From Bacteroidota bacterium (GTDB taxonomy: Bacteria; Bacteroidota; Bacteroidia; Palsa-948), in contig JACRAM010000006.1 in the NCBI GenBank assembly GCA_016213405.1, positions 29,731 to 93,730 on the forward strand: a stretch of DNA of 64,000 bases. Reading direction: 5' to 3'. The translations under genes and the position numbers were made by a program. The notes beneath the pieces were generated by a model. The model did no database searches. It saw only the letters and a program-made list of their open reading frames with translations, and was not told the DNA's origin. Within the stretch, counting starts at the first letter, position 1; every line of letters starts with the position of its first letter. Below, in pieces: positions 56,732 through 64,000 of the stretch.

Positions 56732-56976
56732 GAAAAAATACCCGAAACATATTTGTTTCTGGATTTGCGGGCTGGCGTTTACAACTTGATGACAACGAAT
56801 CGATACACTTCGATGCCTTCCCTTCCAACCCTGAAATTAGTTTTCAAGTGACGAAGATACAACTTCCTGACGATTTCGTTCCCGAATTGGACAAAATAGA
56901 GAACTTTTATGACTTGCATTTGCAGGAGTTGCTTCCGATTTCAGTTGGAGAGCAAGGCAACAATGGGAGTATTACC

Positions 56977-57014
56977 CAACAGGCAAAAGAAAACCCCTGT
57001 TATGCGAACAGGGG
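56977..57014 (-). terminator. Rho-independent terminator closing the phage-derived operon
   Basis: Minus-sense GCCCCUGUUCGCAUAACAGGGG stem-loop followed by UUUUCUUUUG. Confidence 0.65.
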
Positions 57015-57042
57015 CAAACTGGTGGGGTGATTTCGCTAAGAA

Positions 57043-58257
57043 TTACCTCCCCTTTTTCTTTGCTTTTGCGTTGGCTGTTTTGGCAGGGCGTTTTGAGAAT
57101 TTCTCAACCTCTTCCCTTAATGCCTGTATCCTTCGCTGAATAGTTTTCAGGGAGGCGTTTTTCAGGTATGCCCCCAATTCATCATCGTCCAGTTTCTTTG
57201 CAATGTCCATCGCCTCTTGCCTCAAGGAATTTTCAGGAGTGACGATTGCCTTTTCCACTCCCTTTTTATTCTGCACCCATGCTGTGATTTGCTGGCGTAG
57301 CTCCTGTCCGAATTGCTCGGAATATCCTTTGCCTAAATCCTCCCACTTGGGATATTTGCCATTGTCTATTTTGAATTTATAAGGCTTCCATCCTAAATTT
57401 TCAATCACACCATCAATTTGTTTTTCCGTTGCGGTGTCATACCATACTTCCCCTCCAATTTCTTTTTCTTCATTGTTTTCTTCCTGCTTCAACCGATCCA
57501 CGATTGAATACCTTTCCTTGATTTTTTTCATGTCCTCTGCCGAAAGTTGTCTGTTTCCATTTATTAACTCAGAAGCCCAAGAAGAAACTGCATGGCTTTG
57601 TGAATACTCTTTTATTTCCTGAAGCATTTTTTTTATTTCAGGTGTAATGTGTAGCGGGGTTTCTTTGGAATCAATTTTGACAAGAACACCACGAAACCCC
57701 TCCAACAAATCAGAGAAGAAATTTCTCCATCTTATTAAATCAGGCAGGTGTTTCTTCGGGTCAAGGTTTTGTATTTCGCTCTCTGCCTGAAGCCATAAAT
57801 TTTGCGATGCTTCTATATGGCGGTTCATTCCTTCCTCAATAGATTTGGAATACCCTGTATGTTTATCGTACTTTTCATAAAGTTTCTCTCCCAATGCTTC
57901 GTGAATGTGCGCCAGCGTTCCCACATCACCCCAATTGGGATTTTTATTTGAGGCGAAATATTCAATGACCTTTTTCAAATCAGTCATCATTTTTTTGATG
58001 TCGTCTTTGGGATTGCCTTTTACACCCCTAACTAATCTTTCCTTCTCCCATTGATTTGTGGCATCATCAAGCATCATTAGCAAGCCCATCATATCGTTCA
58101 CAAATCTCTGTGCGTGTTTAAAAAGCCCTGTTTCCATTTTAATCGCTTCGTTAAAAATTTCGTTGAACTCTTCATCAGAAAATTTTCTGCCGATGTTTTC
58201 TTCGTGCAGTTGTTTCAAATCAGCGAGTTCATCTGAATAATCGATTGTATTTGTCAT
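57043..58257 (-). CDS. Hypothetical 404-aa helical, Lys/Glu-rich protein (phage-module gene)
   Basis: Long ORF with a basic C-terminal tail (KRPAKTANAKAKKKGR); no recognisable motif; last gene of the module. Confidence 0.45.
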   Translation of the reverse strand: MTNTIDYSDELADLKQLHEENIGRKFSDEEFNEIFNEAIKMETGLFKHAQRFVNDMMGLLMMLDDATNQWEKERLVRGVKGNPKDDIKKMMTDLKKVIEYFASNKNPNWGDVGTLAHIHEALGEKLYEKYDKHTGYSKSIEEGMNRHIEASQNLWLQAESEIQNLDPKKHLPDLIRWRNFFSDLLEGFRGVLVKIDSKETPLHITPEIKKMLQEIKEYSQSHAVSSWASELINGNRQLSAEDMKKIKERYSIVDRLKQEENNEEKEIGGEVWYDTATEKQIDGVIENLGWKPYKFKIDNGKYPKWEDLGKGYSEQFGQELRQQITAWVQNKKGVEKAIVTPENSLRQEAMDIAKKLDDDELGAYLKNASLKTIQRRIQALREEVEKFSKRPAKTANAKAKKKGR

Positions 58258-58314
58258 TGGTAATTAGTTTTAATTTGGACAACAGTAACACACATATTTG
58301 GAACACGCAAGTCT

Positions 58315-59556
58315 TTAATAAATGGGGTCTTTCGTTTCGCTTTCTTCTGAATTTGGTTCCTCAAAAATCTGCATCTCTCCGCCCTGATTGAATCTTCCGA
58401 ACTGAACCGCCTTGCCTTGCTCCGGTATTTCGATCACTACATCCACATCGTGCTGAAATTCGTTTCTCCCTCTGAAAGCGCCTTGCTTGGTGGTTTGGAA
58501 AATGAATATGAACGACTTGCCCGGATTGTCGGCTCGCAACTTGTCCAGGTCTTTCGGAGTTAATCCAAGTTTGTTGACACTGTCAAGGATGATGAAATCA
58601 TACTTCGATAAATCTTCCGGCAGATAATCGCTCACATATAAATTAGGATTGGCGACTTCTTTATCAGCGAGTTTTTTATGAAGCGTAGCATCTAATTTTT
58701 CTTCCTTCGCCACATAGAGCGTGCCCCCATGATGACGGGCAAGGTATCCGGCAAAGTCCATGCAGAGGTATGACTTGCCTGTTTTGGGTTTGCCAAAAAC
58801 CATCGCTGTAAATCCTTTACTGGGATCTCCAATCAAATCTCTCCACTTTTTTGAAAAACCAAGCGATTCAAATTTCATTTCAGCGAAGTCAACGCTGCTC
58901 ATCAGGTTGTGATCCTGCGGGGGAGCCGGAGTATCTTCTTTGGGTTGCTCATCAATTCCTCTTAACCCAACGGAGCCAACTTTTTCAGGCAGAGATTTAT
59001 CGGGTAGAGGTTCATCGTACTCTTTGGATTTCTTAATCGCCTCCCGAAGCATCAGTATTGTCGCTTCCTTTAATTGAATTCTTACAGAATGCGCTTTCAT
59101 TCCGTTATAGATATGAAGCAGGGATTTCTGAATGAAGCCGATCTCCCTTGCAAAGACGGAGGACTTGCGAATTTTCTTGCTCACAATTGCAGACTGCAAC
59201 TGCTCTATTGTTTTCAAAAGAACAGGTTTTGCAATTTCTTCATCCCTCCAGTCAAGCAGCAGTTTGAAATACTTTACTTCCTCTTTAAACTTGTGATACA
59301 TCTTTCTGTATTTCCGTTTGGCTGGCATTCCATCCACTCCTGCAAGATTTTTATTCGCTTTGATGTATTCACCGAGTTTTTCAAAAGCAAGGTCAGCGAC
59401 CTTTTTAAACTCCGCATCCTGCTTGTAAAACTTCCAATCCTTGCCTTGATCTGTTTTAGTCATTAGAACGAGATGCGTTTTCTTCAGCACCTCAGGCAGA
59501 TTCTCAAAGCCAATGCGTTTGACTTCTGAAAAGTAATTTTTCTTTGTAATTTTCAT
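58315..59556 (-). CDS. RecA-superfamily P-loop ATPase (KaiC/RadA/DnaB-C/Sak4-like core) with unknown about 230-aa N-terminal domain
   Basis: ...LGFSKKWRDLIGDPSKGFTAMVFGKPKTGKSYL (RecA-fold lead-in plus Walker A), DFIILDSV (Walker B), and a short core after it. Confidence 0.6.
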   Translation of the reverse strand: MKITKKNYFSEVKRIGFENLPEVLKKTHLVLMTKTDQGKDWKFYKQDAEFKKVADLAFEKLGEYIKANKNLAGVDGMPAKRKYRKMYHKFKEEVKYFKLLLDWRDEEIAKPVLLKTIEQLQSAIVSKKIRKSSVFAREIGFIQKSLLHIYNGMKAHSVRIQLKEATILMLREAIKKSKEYDEPLPDKSLPEKVGSVGLRGIDEQPKEDTPAPPQDHNLMSSVDFAEMKFESLGFSKKWRDLIGDPSKGFTAMVFGKPKTGKSYLCMDFAGYLARHHGGTLYVAKEEKLDATLHKKLADKEVANPNLYVSDYLPEDLSKYDFIILDSVNKLGLTPKDLDKLRADNPGKSFIFIFQTTKQGAFRGRNEFQHDVDVVIEIPEQGKAVQFGRFNQGGEMQIFEEPNSEESETKDPIY

Positions 59557-60419
59557 CGCTTGACGATTTTTAATTTTTTGAGTTGTGATTGTAAATCCTT
59601 CAGCATCTTTCTGTCCAATTCATAAATGCCTGTGTCCTTCTCATCGTAGTTAAACACCATCACCTCAGTTTTTATTTTGTCGGTGAGTTTTGTAACTGCA
59701 ATTTTCTTAGTAACCGAATAAACATTCCATTTATATTTCTTAATGTATTTTTTCAGGATGGCATTCGGATAACTGCTGAGTAAGAACTTTCCTTTGATTT
59801 TTGTCAGCGCATTCAACAATCGGATGTAATCCGCTTCCATGTATCCTTTGTAATGCCCTTGATGCGTGTTGATGTATGGCGGGTCGCAGTAAAAGAATGC
59901 TTTATTGAAGTCGCGGAGCTTAATAACACGGATTGCATCGTTGCATTCAATCTGCACCTTCTTCAATCGGTCAGCATATATTTTTGAAAAATCGTCCCGC
60001 TTCTTTGCAACCGAATCTTCCTTTGAATCATCCTTTCCGAAGCTCCAAGAAGTCAGCAGTCCTGCAAATCCCTGATTGGCGAGCGTCCAAAACGCCCATG
60101 CTCGTTTCACATCGGAAAACATTTCAGAGTTTTCATATATCACTCTTGCTTTTTTCCAAAGCATCCTGCTGTGCAGAGTGGATTTGATTTCTTTTTCCAG
60201 TTCTTTGAACTTTGTCTGCACCACTTTGAAAAATATCATCACTTCTCCGTTCGTGTCGTTGATGACTTCAACATTGGATGGAGGTTTTGCAAAGAACAAT
60301 GCGCCTCCTCCGAAAAATGGTTCGCAGTACAAAACGTGCTGTGGAATTAAAGCCAGCAAACGCTTCACAAGCGTTTGTTTCCCTCCGTAATATGTAATCG
60401 GTGTTTTCATAGAAGCCAA
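59553..60419 (-). CDS. dam: DNA adenine methyltransferase (Dam / D12 class, alpha group)
   Basis: KTPITYYGGKQTLVKRL..., CEPFFGGGALFF (motif I), FYCDPPY (motif IV DPPY). Confidence 0.85.
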   Translation of the reverse strand: MASMKTPITYYGGKQTLVKRLLALIPQHVLYCEPFFGGGALFFAKPPSNVEVINDTNGEVMIFFKVVQTKFKELEKEIKSTLHSRMLWKKARVIYENSEMFSDVKRAWAFWTLANQGFAGLLTSWSFGKDDSKEDSVAKKRDDFSKIYADRLKKVQIECNDAIRVIKLRDFNKAFFYCDPPYINTHQGHYKGYMEADYIRLLNALTKIKGKFLLSSYPNAILKKYIKKYKWNVYSVTKKIAVTKLTDKIKTEVMVFNYDEKDTGIYELDRKMLKDLQSQLKKLKIVKR

Positions 60420-60431
60420 AGCCCCTCCTAA

Positions 60432-60448
60432 TCCTCCCCGAAGGGGAG
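60432..60448. repeat. Perfect GAA-triloop hairpin CCTCCCCGAAGGGGAGG between the two methylase genes
   Basis: cctccccgaaggggagg read directly; same CCC-GAA-GGG core as the hairpins at 47.6 kb. Confidence 0.8.
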
Positions 60449-60453
60449 GACTT

Positions 60454-61971
60454 TCAGGCTGCTTGTTTTAGTTTGATATTATTTTTCATTGTTTCATCAA
60501 GATTTTTTCGTGCGATGTTGCAATATTCTTTTTTGCCGTCTATGCCGATAAAATTCCTACCGAGTTCTATGGCGCGAACGCCAGTCGTTCCTGTTCCACA
60601 AAAAGGGTCAAGGATGATTCCACCTTCGGGACAACCGGCAAGGATGGGTTTTGTAATCAGTTCAGTATTGAAGGTTGCATAGTGTTTGTCAGCACCACGC
60701 TTGGTGGAGATCACCCAAAAGTCCGTTATATCACCTGGATTCTTTCCTTTGGGATTAAGTTTGACTGTTGTTTGTTTCCCGCCACCTTTTTTTCCTTTGC
60801 CAAAGGGTCCCTTAGTATTTTTTGAATCCCCTCCGTAAGCAGTCATTCCATATTGCACTCTGTCATACGAAGATGCTTTGTAGGGATCCCGAACCGCATC
60901 CAAGTCAAAATAATAATCGGGATTTTTTGTAAGAAATAAAATATGTTCGTGTTTTTTGGAAAATCGGTCACGAACGCTTTCAGGAAGAGAATTCGGTTTC
61001 GCCCAAATGATATCGTTCCGCACAATCCATCCCCGCTCCACGCATCCACAGGCGAAACGATGCGGAATCAGGGTCAAACACTTTGTACGGAGATTATTTG
61101 CCTTGTCGTTATTCGCATCCTTCGGAACAATTTTCCTTACCTGTACTTTAATGAGCGTTTGGGCATTATCGTAAGGACTCTTTCCGCTTCCGTTCCCACT
61201 TCCGAAATAACTGTCGCCAAGGTTCACCCAAACCGTGCCTTCAGGTTTCAATACGCGGTAAATCTCATCCATCAGCAAGAGCATATTTTCGAGATACTGC
61301 ATATAGGTTTTTTCTAACCCCCACTGCCCTTTGAATCCATAGTCGCGGAGTTGCCAGTAGGGAGGGGAAGTGATCACGCAGTCAACACTCTCATCGGGAA
61401 ATGTTTTTAATACTTTCAGGGAATCTCCTTCAATAATAGTATTGGCGATCTTTTCAATTTCTTTGCTGGGAGGAGTTTTTTTCTTGACTCCCATCAAACC
61501 TTCATTCGAGAAAGAGAAAAAAGAATCTTTTGTTATTATCAGGTGGTCAAGAACAATAATATCCATTGAAGCTGCTGCTGTTTTAATTTTACTGGTAAGC
61601 ATTTTATCTAAATCGCTTGGCTTGATAGTCCCACTTGGATGATTGTGGGCGAGAATAATTGAAACAGAACCGCTTTTTAGCGCGGTGCCAAGAACCAAGC
61701 GGATATCAACTGGCGCGGAAGTCATCGTTCCTTTAGAATGCTTGTAGTATCCGGTGATTTTATTCGCCTGATCGAGATAAAGGACAAAAAACTGCTCCTG
61801 TAGCTCCAGTTCGCCCTTTGGAAAAAGGTTACGAACGAAATCAGCCACTTGCTGTGGATTGGTAACCGCCCCTCCGAAGATTTTTTTATCGGATCGGTGG
61901 TAGCTGATTTTGATTTCAGGTACCACCATATCCGCCACTTCACCGAGAACGATTTCTGCAACTGCCGTCAT
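60454..61971 (-). CDS. Fusion protein: N-terminal RadC-like JAB/MPN domain + C-terminal beta-class N6/N4 DNA methyltransferase
   Basis: ILAHNHPSG (JAMM-like HxHPSG of RadC/DUF2466) at about aa 95-105. Then DCVITSPPYW (motif IV, SPPY) and later DPFCGTGTTG (motif I), the order typical of beta-class N6_N4_MTases. Confidence 0.75.
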   Translation of the reverse strand: MTAVAEIVLGEVADMVVPEIKISYHRSDKKIFGGAVTNPQQVADFVRNLFPKGELELQEQFFVLYLDQANKITGYYKHSKGTMTSAPVDIRLVLGTALKSGSVSIILAHNHPSGTIKPSDLDKMLTSKIKTAAASMDIIVLDHLIITKDSFFSFSNEGLMGVKKKTPPSKEIEKIANTIIEGDSLKVLKTFPDESVDCVITSPPYWQLRDYGFKGQWGLEKTYMQYLENMLLLMDEIYRVLKPEGTVWVNLGDSYFGSGNGSGKSPYDNAQTLIKVQVRKIVPKDANNDKANNLRTKCLTLIPHRFACGCVERGWIVRNDIIWAKPNSLPESVRDRFSKKHEHILFLTKNPDYYFDLDAVRDPYKASSYDRVQYGMTAYGGDSKNTKGPFGKGKKGGGKQTTVKLNPKGKNPGDITDFWVISTKRGADKHYATFNTELITKPILAGCPEGGIILDPFCGTGTTGVRAIELGRNFIGIDGKKEYCNIARKNLDETMKNNIKLKQAA

Positions 61972-62198
61972 TTTGATTTTGGGTTTAGTGATTTGTTGCC
62001 GGGTTGTTTTTCGTATCCCTCGTTGCAGAAAGAGTGAGCGATTGCTTCACCGATGAGTGCACCGATGAATCCGCCTACCATTACATAGGGCATTACTTCC
62101 TTCTCCTTACTCTTTGCGTAATAAAATCCTGTGAGGGATGATATCAGCGTAAAATAGGAAACAATCGCTTTTTCTTTTAATGAAACCTTAGTCGTCAT
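61968..62198 (-). CDS. Small membrane protein (2 hydrophobic segments)
   Basis: 76 aa, translationally coupled (ATGA overlap) on both sides. Confidence 0.4.
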   Translation of the reverse strand: MTTKVSLKEKAIVSYFTLISSLTGFYYAKSKEKEVMPYVMVGGFIGALIGEAIAHSFCNEGYEKQPGNKSLNPKSK

Positions 62199-62848
62199 TT
62201 TTGCAATAATAATGTTGCTGTAGCTCCTGATAAAATCAATATCCCAGCGGAGAGGATTTTTGTTTTCAGGTTAGACCTGTGGATTTTCTTATCCGCAAGT
62301 TTCAGCTTCTCCGTAAGTTCGCTTTGCTGTGCAAGGGAAGAATCTGCTACCTGCCTAAGCATCGAAAAGCTATTTTCACAAACCGCTACCAGCGAGTCCT
62401 TGTTCTGAATGACGCATTTCAGGTCAGCGATTTCATTGTCGCATAAACTATCTCGCATATTAGTTTCAGAAATAAACTGCATAACCTGCGTTTTCAGGGA
62501 ATCGCAATTGGTAATGATATCGCTGGTATCCTTCAGGATTTTACTTTCTGAAATAAGTAGCTGTATTTTCCCTTGCAGGAAATTCACTTTTTGGGTGGAC
62601 TGCGTGAGGGCAACTTCTGTATTCTGAATCTGATTTACCAGCGCATTATTCTTTACCACCCAGTATTGAATCTGATTTTTGTAGTTCTCCTCAATGTTGC
62701 TGACCTGTACTTTAAGTTCCTTGACAACATTTTTTGATTCCCTGATTTCTGTTTTGAATCCTTCCATTGAATTAAACAGGAGGTAAGTTGAAATTGCCGA
62801 TAGCAAGCTGAATAAAATGGTTATGATGATTGTCTTTTTCATTTTCAT
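62195..62848 (-). CDS. Membrane-anchored coiled-coil protein (i-spanin-like topology)
   Basis: N-terminal TM/signal (IIITILFSLLSAISTYLLF), a long heptad-rich middle, C-terminal hydrophobic segment. Confidence 0.45.
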   Translation of the reverse strand: MKMKKTIIITILFSLLSAISTYLLFNSMEGFKTEIRESKNVVKELKVQVSNIEENYKNQIQYWVVKNNALVNQIQNTEVALTQSTQKVNFLQGKIQLLISESKILKDTSDIITNCDSLKTQVMQFISETNMRDSLCDNEIADLKCVIQNKDSLVAVCENSFSMLRQVADSSLAQQSELTEKLKLADKKIHRSNLKTKILSAGILILSGATATLLLQK

Positions 62849-63090
62849 GGTTGTTCGTTTTTAGTTTCGTTAGTGTTTGTTTTTGCTTTTTTCTCTATTG
62901 AATAACCGAAACATCCCGCTCCGATGATGCTGACGAAAGAGTAAAACATATACTCAGGTACTGCGATTCCAAAAAACTGCTGTCCAATCCAACTTATGAG
63001 CGTTACCACTACAAAAACAAGCGTTACTAATTCCCGCAGGTTGTAACTGCCGTCTTTGTCTTTCAGTATTTGTTTTCCAAATTCATTCAT
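62845..63090 (-). CDS. Holin-like small membrane protein
   Basis: 81 aa, two TM helices, a charged C-terminal tail (EKKAKTNTNETKNEQP); located next to the amidase. Confidence 0.45.
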   Translation of the reverse strand: MNEFGKQILKDKDGSYNLRELVTLVFVVVTLISWIGQQFFGIAVPEYMFYSFVSIIGAGCFGYSIEKKAKTNTNETKNEQP

Positions 63091-63751
63091 TGGTGTCGTA
63101 GTTTATGTATCCGATTAATCCCAGTCCGAGCGTGAGTGTTCCTATTACGATTCTTTTAATTGATTCCCTCCGCATCGCACGGAAGTCAAGCAGCGTATAG
63201 GTGAATCGGTTTCCATACAAACTGCTGTGGTTGTCGCACATCGACATGAACTCATTAAAATCACTTGCATTCTGAAAGACCTGGCATCCTGCGGAAAATT
63301 TATCAATGACTTTTGTTTTCCCTTTTGCCATCGCCCTGTGAATGTTGATTCCAAAAATTCCTGTGTCCTTTCTTCCATTGAAAAAATCAAGCCTCGCATT
63401 TCGGTCGTAGTCCCGCATAATGGTCACAGGAGCCATCTGCACAAGGGCTTTGTATTGCCCGAGGTGCATTCCGATTTTGTAGGCATTTACATATTGCCCT
63501 TGTGCGAGGATGGCTGTGCCCTGCGGTTGCATCGGGTTCTTCAGCCAGTAAGTTCCGGGATCGGTCGTTCCTTTGAAAATGTGATAGTTCCATTTTAATG
63601 GTTTTGCTTTGTAGAAAACGTGTATCTCATCATCAAAGCGGTTAGGCACAACGCTACGTGTGCGGATTCCCACGATGTTCAGTTCATAAGGGCGTGTGTT
63701 CAGCACAAAGCCTTTGTCGCGGAGAATGGATTTTACTCTCGGAAGTATCAT
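63083..63751 (-). CDS. YkuD/L,D-transpeptidase-fold-like protein with C-terminal TM anchor (putative peptidoglycan-active enzyme); start at the internal Met overlapping the amidase stop
   Basis: INIHRAMAKGKTKVIDKFSAGCQVF matches H-x(17)-S-x-G-C of the YkuD catalytic pair. C-terminal IVIGTLTLGLGLIGYI. ATGA overlap with the upstream gene if started at 63751 (MILPRV...). Confidence 0.4.
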   Translation of the reverse strand: MILPRVKSILRDKGFVLNTRPYELNIVGIRTRSVVPNRFDDEIHVFYKAKPLKWNYHIFKGTTDPGTYWLKNPMQPQGTAILAQGQYVNAYKIGMHLGQYKALVQMAPVTIMRDYDRNARLDFFNGRKDTGIFGINIHRAMAKGKTKVIDKFSAGCQVFQNASDFNEFMSMCDNHSSLYGNRFTYTLLDFRAMRRESIKRIVIGTLTLGLGLIGYINYDTNE

Positions 63752-64000
63752 GCTGCCTGTTTGAAATCGGGTTTGTAGTTTTTGAGCCACTCTCTCACAT
63801 CAAAGCTTGGACAGGCTTTATGCACGCCCGGAAAATCCCTGTGTCCGAGAAACTTTGCCTTCGGATATTTTTCTCCGAGTTCCATCAGCTTGTTAAACAT
63901 GGAGTGAATCTGTCTTTCAGATCGGTTATCCATTGGATTGCCTTCTTTGTCAACTCCTCCGATGTAGGAGATATGAATGCACTCCTGATTATGACCGTAT
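63748..64000 (-). CDS. N-acetylmuramoyl-L-alanine amidase (Amidase_2/PGRP-type endolysin), 5' part beyond window end
   Basis: ...CIHISYIGG...KFLGHRDFPGVHKACPSFD... (conserved Amidase_2 His / Cys-Pro region). The frame stays open to position 64000. Confidence 0.65.
   Translation of the reverse strand, partial: YGHNQECIHISYIGGVDKEGNPMDNRSERQIHSMFNKLMELGEKYPKAKFLGHRDFPGVHKACPSFDVREWLKNYKPDFKQAA

Follow-up and report, generated by a model that had tools for sequence, protein, structure and literature searches.

What is the compact run of genes that closes the stretch of DNA considered here (the window: 64 000 nt of contig JACRAM010000006.1 from the Bacteroidota assembly GCA_016213405.1)? Between positions 57043 and 64000 lie nine intact open reading frames (ORFs), all co-oriented on the minus strand according to the ORF listing; they encode wall-acting and membrane proteins, DNA methyltransferases (MTases), an ATPase and a protein without assigned function. 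The initial annotation saw in them a phage-derived module that might be the edge of a prophage, a degraded prophage or a domesticated unit. Comparison with relatives indicates that 57043–64000 is the distal (3′) 7 kb of an integrated mobile element of ~20–25 kb. The block is indeed an edge, that of a phage-like mobile element which runs out of the window, but not that of an ordinary tailed prophage. On balance, we favour the view that the element is a temperate, tailless virus with a jelly-roll capsid, probably containing a membrane, and that it belongs to a large, unannotated family of Bacteroidota. The individual genes of the window are mostly of known families (amidase, phrog_3000, RadC, the two MTases and the RecA-like ATPase); the family of elements appears to be undescribed as far as the libraries show.

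More than 40 related loci, from Bacteroidota metagenome-assembled genomes (MAGs) of groundwater, soil and freshwater and from three IMG/VR contigs, share one order of genes on a single strand. This order starts with an optional large serine recombinase, a small helix-turn-helix (HTH) protein and an ImmA-like regulator, continues with about 12 unannotated membrane or beta-rich proteins, and ends with the hydrolase/lysis cassette, a RadC-methylase polyvalent protein with or without Dam, a RecA-superfamily ATPase and variable cargo. A genome scan with the 235-amino-acid (aa) protein of the window found the block in identical order in three groundwater Bacteroidetes MAGs (L002, L003 and L004; 83, 73 and 63% identity), preceded upstream of the amidase by ~14 co-oriented, mutually homologous genes. 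The layout recurs in IMG/VR contigs L086 and L087, in loci L095 and L097 and in 80 metagenome loci, many of them on contigs of 0.1–5.3 Mb, and the order is kept in a more distant IMG/VR relative (L179). One ENA contig (L088 and L092) carries the complete element between host genes, and the end of L091 matches that of the window, with MTase, Dam, ATPase and 404-aa homologue followed by host genes. From copy to copy, the proteins are 25–90% identical.

The occupancy of each slot was counted in the 33 loci whose sequence extends >10.5 kb rightward from the signature gene, which encodes a 240-aa protein. The amidase is present in 30/33, the phrog_3000 gene in 32/33, the 81-aa protein in 32/33, the transmembrane coiled-coil protein in 27/33 and the 76-aa protein in 31/33, with the polyvalent protein in 20/33 and Dam in 14/33. 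The initial annotation had thought it unusual that lysis genes should precede methylase genes. However, the lysis cassette is kept in 27–32 of the 33 loci and is then followed by the polyvalent protein and/or Dam, and lysis genes before methylase and ATPase genes are therefore the normal layout of the family. Conserved synteny in a chromosomal operon had been set against a phage origin, and on this point the outcome is mixed: synteny is conserved, but what it describes is a mobile element equipped with a serine recombinase and regulators of ImmA type, and no fixed chromosomal operon.

The most conserved gene of the family lies upstream of the lysis cassette in the relatives. It encodes a 240–243-aa protein resembling a major capsid protein (MCP) and is found in at least 1680 clusters at 90% identity (441 at the 50% level); the best 120 of these at least 1680 clusters are 64–93% identical to the 240-aa query, all are called ‘hypothetical’ and none carries a Pfam domain. 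The protein has no match in PHROGs, even with 70 distant members included, in Pfam, in 50 697 GenBank phage records or in 72 556 PLSDB plasmid records, and a profile of the family searched against PDB sequences gave nothing meaningful. The best fold matches of its model are capsid proteins. The fold figures are 8.9 for the Orf virus D13-type scaffold Orfv075, 8.1 for satellite panicum mosaic virus, 8.0 each for the STIV MCP and a microvirus MCP, 7.7 for PRD1 P3, 7.6 for an HHIV-2 protein, 7.4 for P23-77 VP17, 7.3 for HCIV-1 VP7, 6.6 for the FLiP MCP, 6.5 for P23-77 VP16 and 6.4 for HCIV-1 VP4; SPV1 VP4 was matched too. Comparison by hhalign detected no relation of the family to the neighbouring beta-rich families (127, ~190, 108 and ~170 aa). 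One MCP-like protein (P0073) is recorded from a MAG of Microcystis aeruginosa, and an ATPase (P0227) from a Patescibacteria MAG; both records are probably binning errors, and a wider host range could also account for them.

Around the MCP-like gene, the relatives encode membrane-anchored proteins: a LEA_2-like protein, a transglutaminase-like protein of 500–880 aa with a transmembrane segment, and proteins of ~200, ~232 and ~298 aa, the N-terminal part of the last matching endolysin PHROGs. A coiled-coil protein, a 60-aa protein and small soluble beta-rich proteins complete the module. Three or four peptidoglycan-targeting genes are grouped with holin-like proteins. A region of ~100 residues in the transglutaminase-like protein matches phrog_14478, ‘virion structural protein’, too weakly to be informative (E 0.001); beyond these matches, PHROGs and Pfam found nothing on the upstream module. 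The long operon opens with a gene for a conserved protein of 180–250 aa that has the motif ...IPHPCIWL..KGFAGT..WY... and no family match (L003 1014–1553, L087 5725–6297, L095 4054–4803, L130 5801–6388). A small HTH protein always comes after this protein, for which a role as replication initiator or late activator may be considered.

The same upstream region bears on the idea of a conventional tailed prophage (Caudoviricetes), of which the block would be the edge and whose structural genes would lie beyond the window. Tailed phages commonly encode amidases and phrog_3000 lysis proteins, methylases of the Dam and N6_N4 kinds, and ATPases of the Sak4-like/AAA_24 kind. The window ends before the region in question, and the search for tailed-phage genes was run in relatives: in L003, and with precomputed Pfam annotation in L088 plus L092, L095 and L097. 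For close relatives (63–83% identity), neither PHROGs nor Pfam gave a terminase, a portal, an HK97 MCP or any tail family, whether in the flanks or over the 10 kb that lie upstream of the amidase. Furthermore, 0/80 IMG/VR contigs that share the phrog_3000 gene share another element gene, and the absence of the signature protein from the 50 697 phage records points the same way. A tailed prophage is, in our judgement, essentially excluded.

A tailless virus faces objections of its own, and these weigh against the reading that we favour. The element has no FtsK/HerA (A32-type) packaging ATPase, its only ATPase being RecA-like, and no replication initiator was recognised in it. Foldseek against BFVD gave weak, unspecific matches only (TM ≤0.38). 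Polyvalent proteins with RadC and SMS/RadA domains come mainly from conjugative elements (Iyer et al. 2017, PMC5512222). No circular or free genome was found among contigs of 17–27 kb, all of which end inside the element. A recombinase is within reach in 2/39 loci on the left and in 1/33 on the right, where the end is usually past the fetched sequence, and none was seen in the complete copy (L088/L092). In the source genome, finally, it is synteny that places the rest of the element beyond 64 kb. As to the first objection, jelly-roll viruses that lack such an ATPase are known from the Odin group (Yutin et al. 2018).

Several of these points would suit a non-viral integrative element, such as an integrative plasmid or a novel system of contact-dependent or vesicle-borne transfer. 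This is the main rival explanation, which we hold to be unlikely though of some weight. In such an element the membrane proteins and hydrolases would make or open a route across the envelope; the polyvalent protein and RadA-like ATPase would accompany the DNA, or act on it once it is in the recipient, as happens with conjugative elements. The assignment of RadC and SMS/RadA polyvalent proteins to conjugative elements and plasmids, notably in Bacteroidetes (PMC5512222), speaks for it, as do the missing packaging ATPase, terminase and portal, the many membrane-anchored proteins, and the mere three IMG/VR contigs against >256 metagenome loci and at least 1680 protein clusters. Yet the complete element lacks a relaxase, a coupling protein, an ATPase of the VirB4/TraG type and any Tra family of Bacteroidetes (precomputed Pfam for L088 plus L092; Pfam scans of L003 and L087), and none of the 72 556 plasmid records matches. 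It is capsid proteins that the most conserved protein matches best by fold, and the amidase, phrog_3000 and holin-like genes make up a cassette of phage type, with an enzyme family that is found widely among phage contigs. Two more specific candidates were rejected: a canonical integrative and conjugative element (ICE), as the complete element has no conjugation genes, and the ‘Charybdis’ elements, which are unrelated 4.6-kb elements of archaea.

If the element is a virus, a broader proposal can be made tentatively. The relatives may represent an unrecognised and widespread lineage of temperate tailless Bacteroidota viruses, of family level or higher, with a capsid protein of single-jelly-roll size that has no known sequence kin. 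It is likewise possible that the virions of this lineage have membrane proteins and wall enzymes, do without an FtsK/HerA ATPase, and have the polyvalent protein and RadA-like ATPase associated with the virion or with entry. In IMG/VR, the family is represented by three contigs (two close relatives and one distant) against >256 metagenome loci; present virus-detection pipelines might then, if this is a virus, miss the family almost entirely. A search of the full-text literature found no description of it.

The part of the element that lies within the window is given here in the order of transcription.

63748–64000, minus strand: N-acetylmuramoyl-L-alanine amidase, an Amidase_2-type endolysin; 3′ part (83 codons), running off the window end

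63083–63790, minus strand: putative cell-wall-acting enzyme of the phrog_3000 family (phrog_3000, 6e-35), with a hydrophobic C-terminal anchor

62845–63090, minus strand: 81-aa small membrane protein, candidate holin, with two hydrophobic segments and a charged C-terminus

62195–62848, minus strand: 217-aa protein, transmembrane at residues 5–23 and 197–215, with a long coiled-coil-like middle

61968–62198, minus strand: 76-aa small membrane protein, by hydropathy

60454–61971, minus strand: RadC (JAB-fold) domain fused to a beta-class N6/N4 DNA MTase, 505 aa

60433–60449, no strand: GC-rich perfect hairpin CCTCCCCTTCGGGGAGG in the 43-nt spacer from the RadC-MTase stop to the Dam ATG; occurs once in the window

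59553–60419, minus strand: D12-class (Dam-family) N6-adenine DNA MTase, 288-aa ORF; its stop overlaps the ATPase start (ATGA)

58315–59556, minus strand: 413-aa ATPase with Walker A GKPKTGKS and Walker B DFIILDS

57043–58257, minus strand: 404-aa protein, function unassigned by families, in a variable slot at the element end

57033–57053, no strand: probable right-hand boundary of the element (or cargo indel point), at the break with L180

56993–57015, minus strand: intrinsic-terminator-like hairpin and T-run, a 9-bp stem with 5 GC pairs, then TTTCTTTT; closes the operon

These genes form a tightly coupled single unit, with the lysis-type cassette ahead of the DNA-modification/ATPase block, much as first described. 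All five ATGA overlaps of start and stop are present (63748/63751, 62845/62848, 62195/62198, 61968/61971 and 59553/59556), with an additional ATGAATGA overlap at 63083–63090, and gaps occur at only three junctions (34, 57 and 311 nt). The terminator proposed at ~57.0 kb is there as a minus-strand hairpin and T-run, 28 nt past the stop of the 404-aa gene. A small plus-strand ORF (56749–57030) lies between the start of the major facilitator superfamily (MFS) gene (56731) and the 404-aa stop (57043) and converges on the 404-aa gene; the hairpin region 56993–57049 is common to the two. In a 98.9%-identical stretch of L180 this ORF is a 93-aa gene call, and in the window its first canonical start is GTG 56848, which gives 60 aa.

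The block was also said to be more GC-rich than the adjacent core genes, which does not hold. Its GC content is 41.7%, against 42.4% in the adjacent 50–57 kb, 44.7% in the three nearest genes and 46.6% in the MFS gene. The block exceeds only the mean of the window (37.8%), a mean lowered by the low-GC region at 14–38 kb. This region (14000–38000), mostly of minus-strand genes, has a GC fraction of 0.29–0.36 against 0.38–0.46 elsewhere in the window, and it, not the phage-like block, is the compositional outlier. Outside the block, the neighbouring genes are the MFS transporter and an acetylornithine-type aminotransferase. Scans of the window found neither tRNA nor integrase, and there are no homologues of the element genes elsewhere in the 64 kb.

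The amidase at the head of the lysis-type cassette was correctly recognised as an Amidase_2 endolysin. Its truncated product matches the phrog_822 amidase (4e-25) and is 61–76% identical to the products of full-length genes of 144–148 aa in L002–L004, and full-length homologues of 144–151 aa in L088 and L095 carry PF01510. One amidase gene stands ahead of the phrog_3000 gene in the window and in L002–L004. In four other loci, two tandem amidase paralogues are found at this place (L113 14632–15484, L130 14677–15523, L132 15252–16144 and L142 15220–16105).

The 235-aa ORF that follows most likely starts at ATG 63751, giving 222 aa and overlapping the amidase stop as ATGA. Its protein also matches the C-terminal domain of the endolysin phrog_33083 (8e-16), and the phrog_3000 family is common in IMG/VR phage contigs. 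The label ‘YkuD-like’ given to it is a lead at the level of a motif: the family has an invariant H..NIH..SAGC motif, but five of its members gave no Pfam YkuD match at E≤5, and a PDB sequence search with the phrog_3000-family protein found no match. In L088 (15355–15987; on the same contig as L092), the phrog_3000 slot is filled by an unrelated Glucosaminidase (PF01832) gene, a swap between non-homologous genes which supports wall hydrolysis as the function of the slot.

In size, hydropathy and position the 81-aa protein would suit a holin, but it matches no holin family. The 217-aa protein is a candidate for a spanin-like, envelope-spanning lysis factor or for a virion membrane protein, although no lipobox cysteine follows its N-terminal segment. 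The membrane topologies initially assigned to the 81-, 217- and 76-aa proteins are consistent with hydropathy, and none of the three has a family match in profile searches.

The fusion of RadC and MTase is borne out by strong matches to PF04002 (9e-36) and to N6_N4_Mtase PF01555 (3e-54). The orthologous slot of L002 holds a protein of 2128 aa with RadC, N6_N4_Mtase, MutS_I, AAA_34/ResIII and Helicase_C_4 domains, and that of L004 a protein of 1731 aa with RadC, AAA_34/ResIII and Helicase_C_4 but neither MTase nor MutS_I. By domain content and position, the RadC-MTase of the window is the short form of this ‘polyvalent’ protein. Polyvalent proteins, as defined by Iyer et al. (2017, PMC5512222), include the methylase-helicase dyad, with P1 DarB as the prototype, and RadC domains; MutS-I domains occur in those of Bacteroidetes and Firmicutes and SMS/RadA domains in those of Bacteroidetes, and the proteins are proposed to act early after DNA entry. 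The proteins of the window, L002 and L004 each combine at least two conflict-related domains in one polypeptide encoded by a mobile element.

Downstream of the fusion, the hairpin at 60433–60449 could be an internal attenuator or an RNA-processing site. Dam, for which ATG 60410 is the most likely start, was rightly called a D12/Dam-type MTase (PF02086, 1e-24), and it matches TIGR00571 dam at 5e-29, which is under the cut-off of that model. The short form, with a RadC-MTase of ~505–531 aa, separate Dam, ATPase and 404-aa homologue, recurs in L003 and L091.

Two MTases side by side might suggest a chromosomal restriction-modification (R–M) or defence island that has come to lie beside cell-wall genes by chance. 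Both enzymes match MTase models in PADLOC (type II MTase), and there are further matches to mad2 (1.2e-15), confined to the MTase domain of the RadC-MTase, and a weak one of the ATPase to mad8 (2.6e-5). The MTase models are all that the two enzymes match, however. The block has no restriction endonuclease or nuclease ORF and no complete PADLOC system, it is translationally coupled to the lysis genes, and its genes travel with the element in all relatives. We regard such an island as essentially excluded, and since the methylases have no nuclease partner they are orphan enzymes, presumably of self-protective kind, for which an anti-restriction role may be supposed.

The ATPase consists of an N-terminal helical domain (about residues 1–180), a linker and a C-terminal P-loop domain of the RecA superfamily. 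The fold is RadA/Sms-KaiC-DnaB-like with a RecA-type core that has Walker A and B, in agreement with the initial annotation, and the protein is not a packaging ATPase. Profiles give weak matches to AAA_24/AAA_25 and a match to phrog_6891, and nothing meaningful among PDB sequences. Exact look-ups of the 222/235-aa protein, the RadC-MTase and the ATPase led only to a 2.6-kb Logan contig (L001); DNA of 100% identity is also found in run SRR12113407. The ATPase is also identical to a protein (P0198, HY841_00845) on a 136-kb contig of an NCBI Bacteroidetes MAG, and this MAG has an MCP-like gene as well (P0053, HY841_03980) on a separate contig of 76 kb.

The 404-aa protein is still a protein without assignment, as no match in Pfam, PHROG, NCBIfam or PADLOC is significant; below threshold are Bcl-2 (E 0.008, far under the cut-off) and phrog_14596 (E 0.004). 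Homologues are present in L003 and L091, and an Mrr_cat gene takes its place in L092. With only 14 homologue clusters and a variable slot at the element end, the gene is best regarded as cargo.

The end of the element can be placed with some precision. L180 is 93.7% identical to the window up to 57053, has an extra RibD_C gene of 676 bp, and is then 98.9% identical over 57033–56766. Past their 404-aa homologues, L091 and L003 have nothing in common. The end of the element is therefore most likely to be found no more than ~20 nt from the 404-aa stop. The extra gene in L180 (1783–2458), co-oriented and exactly after the 404-aa gene, has the look of cargo gained or lost at the end of the element. 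Cargo on this side may be the 404-aa gene, a RibD_C gene or a nuclease of Mrr type; on the left it includes secreted proteins, two-component systems and an ion channel. In L087 (1–5500), L086 (2793–4912) and L088 (4493–5461), variable cargo separates the lysogeny genes from the long operon, namely a secreted protein of 538 aa, an ion channel, and a histidine kinase together with its response regulator. Alignment of the ends in the window, L091 and L003 gave no shared att-like sequence, and there is no tRNA at any boundary.

The flanks differ from copy to copy: the MFS gene in the window, MauE in L091, LytTR/OmpA in L092, a two-component system in L097 and FecR/sigma/AraC in L130, which lies in the 5.27-Mb assembly JAESFN010000001.1. 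Two or three copies are found in single MAGs (IT233_*, with MCP-like P0016 and P0079 and ATPases P0160 and P0161; HY062_*, with P0164 and P0180). In L003, the gene that comes immediately after the 404-aa homologue encodes a large serine recombinase (Resolvase, Recombinase, Zn_ribbon_recom). In L086, L157 and L160, the serine recombinase lies at the opposite end, beside the small HTH gene and divergent from the long operon, and in L157 an ImmA-like HTH-M78 peptidase gene accompanies the two. If the copy in the window has a recombinase, it should be at the far end.

That most copies have no integrase within reach, with none in the complete L088/L092, could also mean that the block, or the whole element, is a defective or domesticated remnant: a lysis/bacteriocin-like unit or a unit like a gene transfer agent (GTA) that the host has kept, or an immobile element in decay. 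The lack of a free circular form would agree with this, as would the short polyvalent protein of the window, 505 aa against 1731–2128 aa elsewhere. The nine ORFs are, however, intact and translationally coupled, and the short RadC-MTase with Dam recurs in L003 and L091, so that it marks a lineage and not decay. Insertion sites vary and some genomes have multiple copies; cargo is turned over at both ends, and identities of 25–90% between copies are those of an evolving mobile element. We therefore consider a remnant improbable, and the words ‘degraded’ and ‘domesticated’, offered at first as alternatives, fit poorly with intact ORFs, a recurrent variant, differing sites and several copies per MAG.

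How might the element work as a virus? It would be essentially one long operon, read leftward in the window. A lysogeny and regulation module (recombinase in some copies, HTH protein and ImmA/IrrE-like HTH-metallopeptidase) would be followed by the ~190-aa protein with a small HTH protein and by a morphogenesis-like module with the 240-aa putative jelly-roll protein. The wall hydrolases and small membrane proteins, the polyvalent protein with or without Dam, the RadA/KaiC/DnaB-like ATPase and cargo would come after. Late in infection, to go by gene identity and position, the 81-aa holin-like protein would open the inner membrane, and the amidase and phrog_3000 enzyme would cut the peptidoglycan. 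The transmembrane-coiled-coil-transmembrane protein and the 76-aa protein would then finish the disruption of the envelope, or they may be components of the virion membrane or of entry. The two orphan MTases would modify the DNA of the element and so make it resistant to restriction in the current and the next host. By analogy, RadC, joined in relatives by MutS-I and Strawberry-notch (Sbno)-type helicase domains, would act on the DNA soon after entry. The RecA-superfamily ATPase, the fold of which is clear, may be a hexameric-helicase or RadA-like motor for replication or recombination of the element, and the 404-aa gene would be strain-specific cargo.

The 7 kb of the window are of modest significance alone, being mostly of known gene families; the significance is in the whole element. 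If it is a virus, the Bacteroidota of soil, groundwater, freshwater and wastewater have a common, overlooked group of tailless phages, jelly-roll-capsid viruses without a packaging ATPase extend to a major bacterial phylum, and an element that is not conjugative makes use of anti-restriction polyvalent proteins of the RadC/RadA type, which had until now been linked with conjugative elements. If it is not, a large family of mobile elements with an unknown mechanism of transfer remains. The 240-aa protein and the C-terminal domain of the ATPase are well-conserved markers for finders of proviruses and mobile genetic elements, which now label these regions as hypothetical chromosomal genes.

Of the known systems, the polyvalent systems (Iyer et al. 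2017, PMC5512222; DarB of phage P1) are the closest parallel for the DNA-modification block. The L002 protein likewise combines RadC, methylase, MutS-I and a superfamily 2 (SF2) helicase of the Strawberry-notch type, a RadA/Sms-KaiC-like ATPase comes after it, as in the polyvalent systems of Bacteroidetes, and the genes belong to an invading element and lie beside late genes. In the window, however, a fusion of two domains, Dam and the ATPase are encoded by three separate genes, and whereas the RadC/SMS-RadA types have been assigned to conjugative elements, the element here is without conjugation genes. The lysogeny genes of the relatives, HTH_3 with Peptidase_M78 and an integrase with Resolvase, Recombinase and Zn_ribbon_recom, divergent from the operon, recall ImmR/ImmA of ICEBs1 and integrases of the phiC31/TP901-1 type, although the window itself contains none of them and, for many copies, the fetched sequence shows no recombinase.

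Compared with the lysis cassettes of phages (lambda S-R-Rz/Rz1; PRD1 XV-XXXV-XXXVI-XXXVII), the element similarly has an amidase and a second wall enzyme, then two-transmembrane, coiled-coil and small membrane proteins, all coupled. Its holin and spanin candidates, in contrast, match no family, the 217-aa protein is transmembrane at both ends and lacks a lipobox, and the cassette is placed mid-operon, before the methylase and ATPase genes, rather than at the end.

The lipid-containing Bacteroidetes phages FLiP and PhiCjT23 (Finnlakeviridae) differ in that their single-stranded DNA of <10 kb replicates by rolling circle and encodes an MCP of ~300 aa with a double jelly roll, whereas the element has 20–25 kb and a 240-aa protein of single-jelly-roll size, with no Rep recognised. 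From the temperate tailless phages with vertical jelly-roll capsid proteins and an internal membrane, and their kin (Thermus phages P23-77 and IN93, haloarchaeal Simuloviridae, sphaerolipoviruses, PRD1, PM2 and SPV1/Portogloboviridae), it is set apart by the lack of detectable sequence similarity and of an FtsK/HerA-type packaging ATPase, by its Bacteroidota host, by its polyvalent protein and RecA-like ATPase, and by a capsid that is putative. The model of its 240-aa protein matches proteins of several of them in fold, and it shares with them the ~17–25 kb size class, the integrated temperate style, one long operon, small membrane and beta-rich proteins and lytic enzymes of the virion type.

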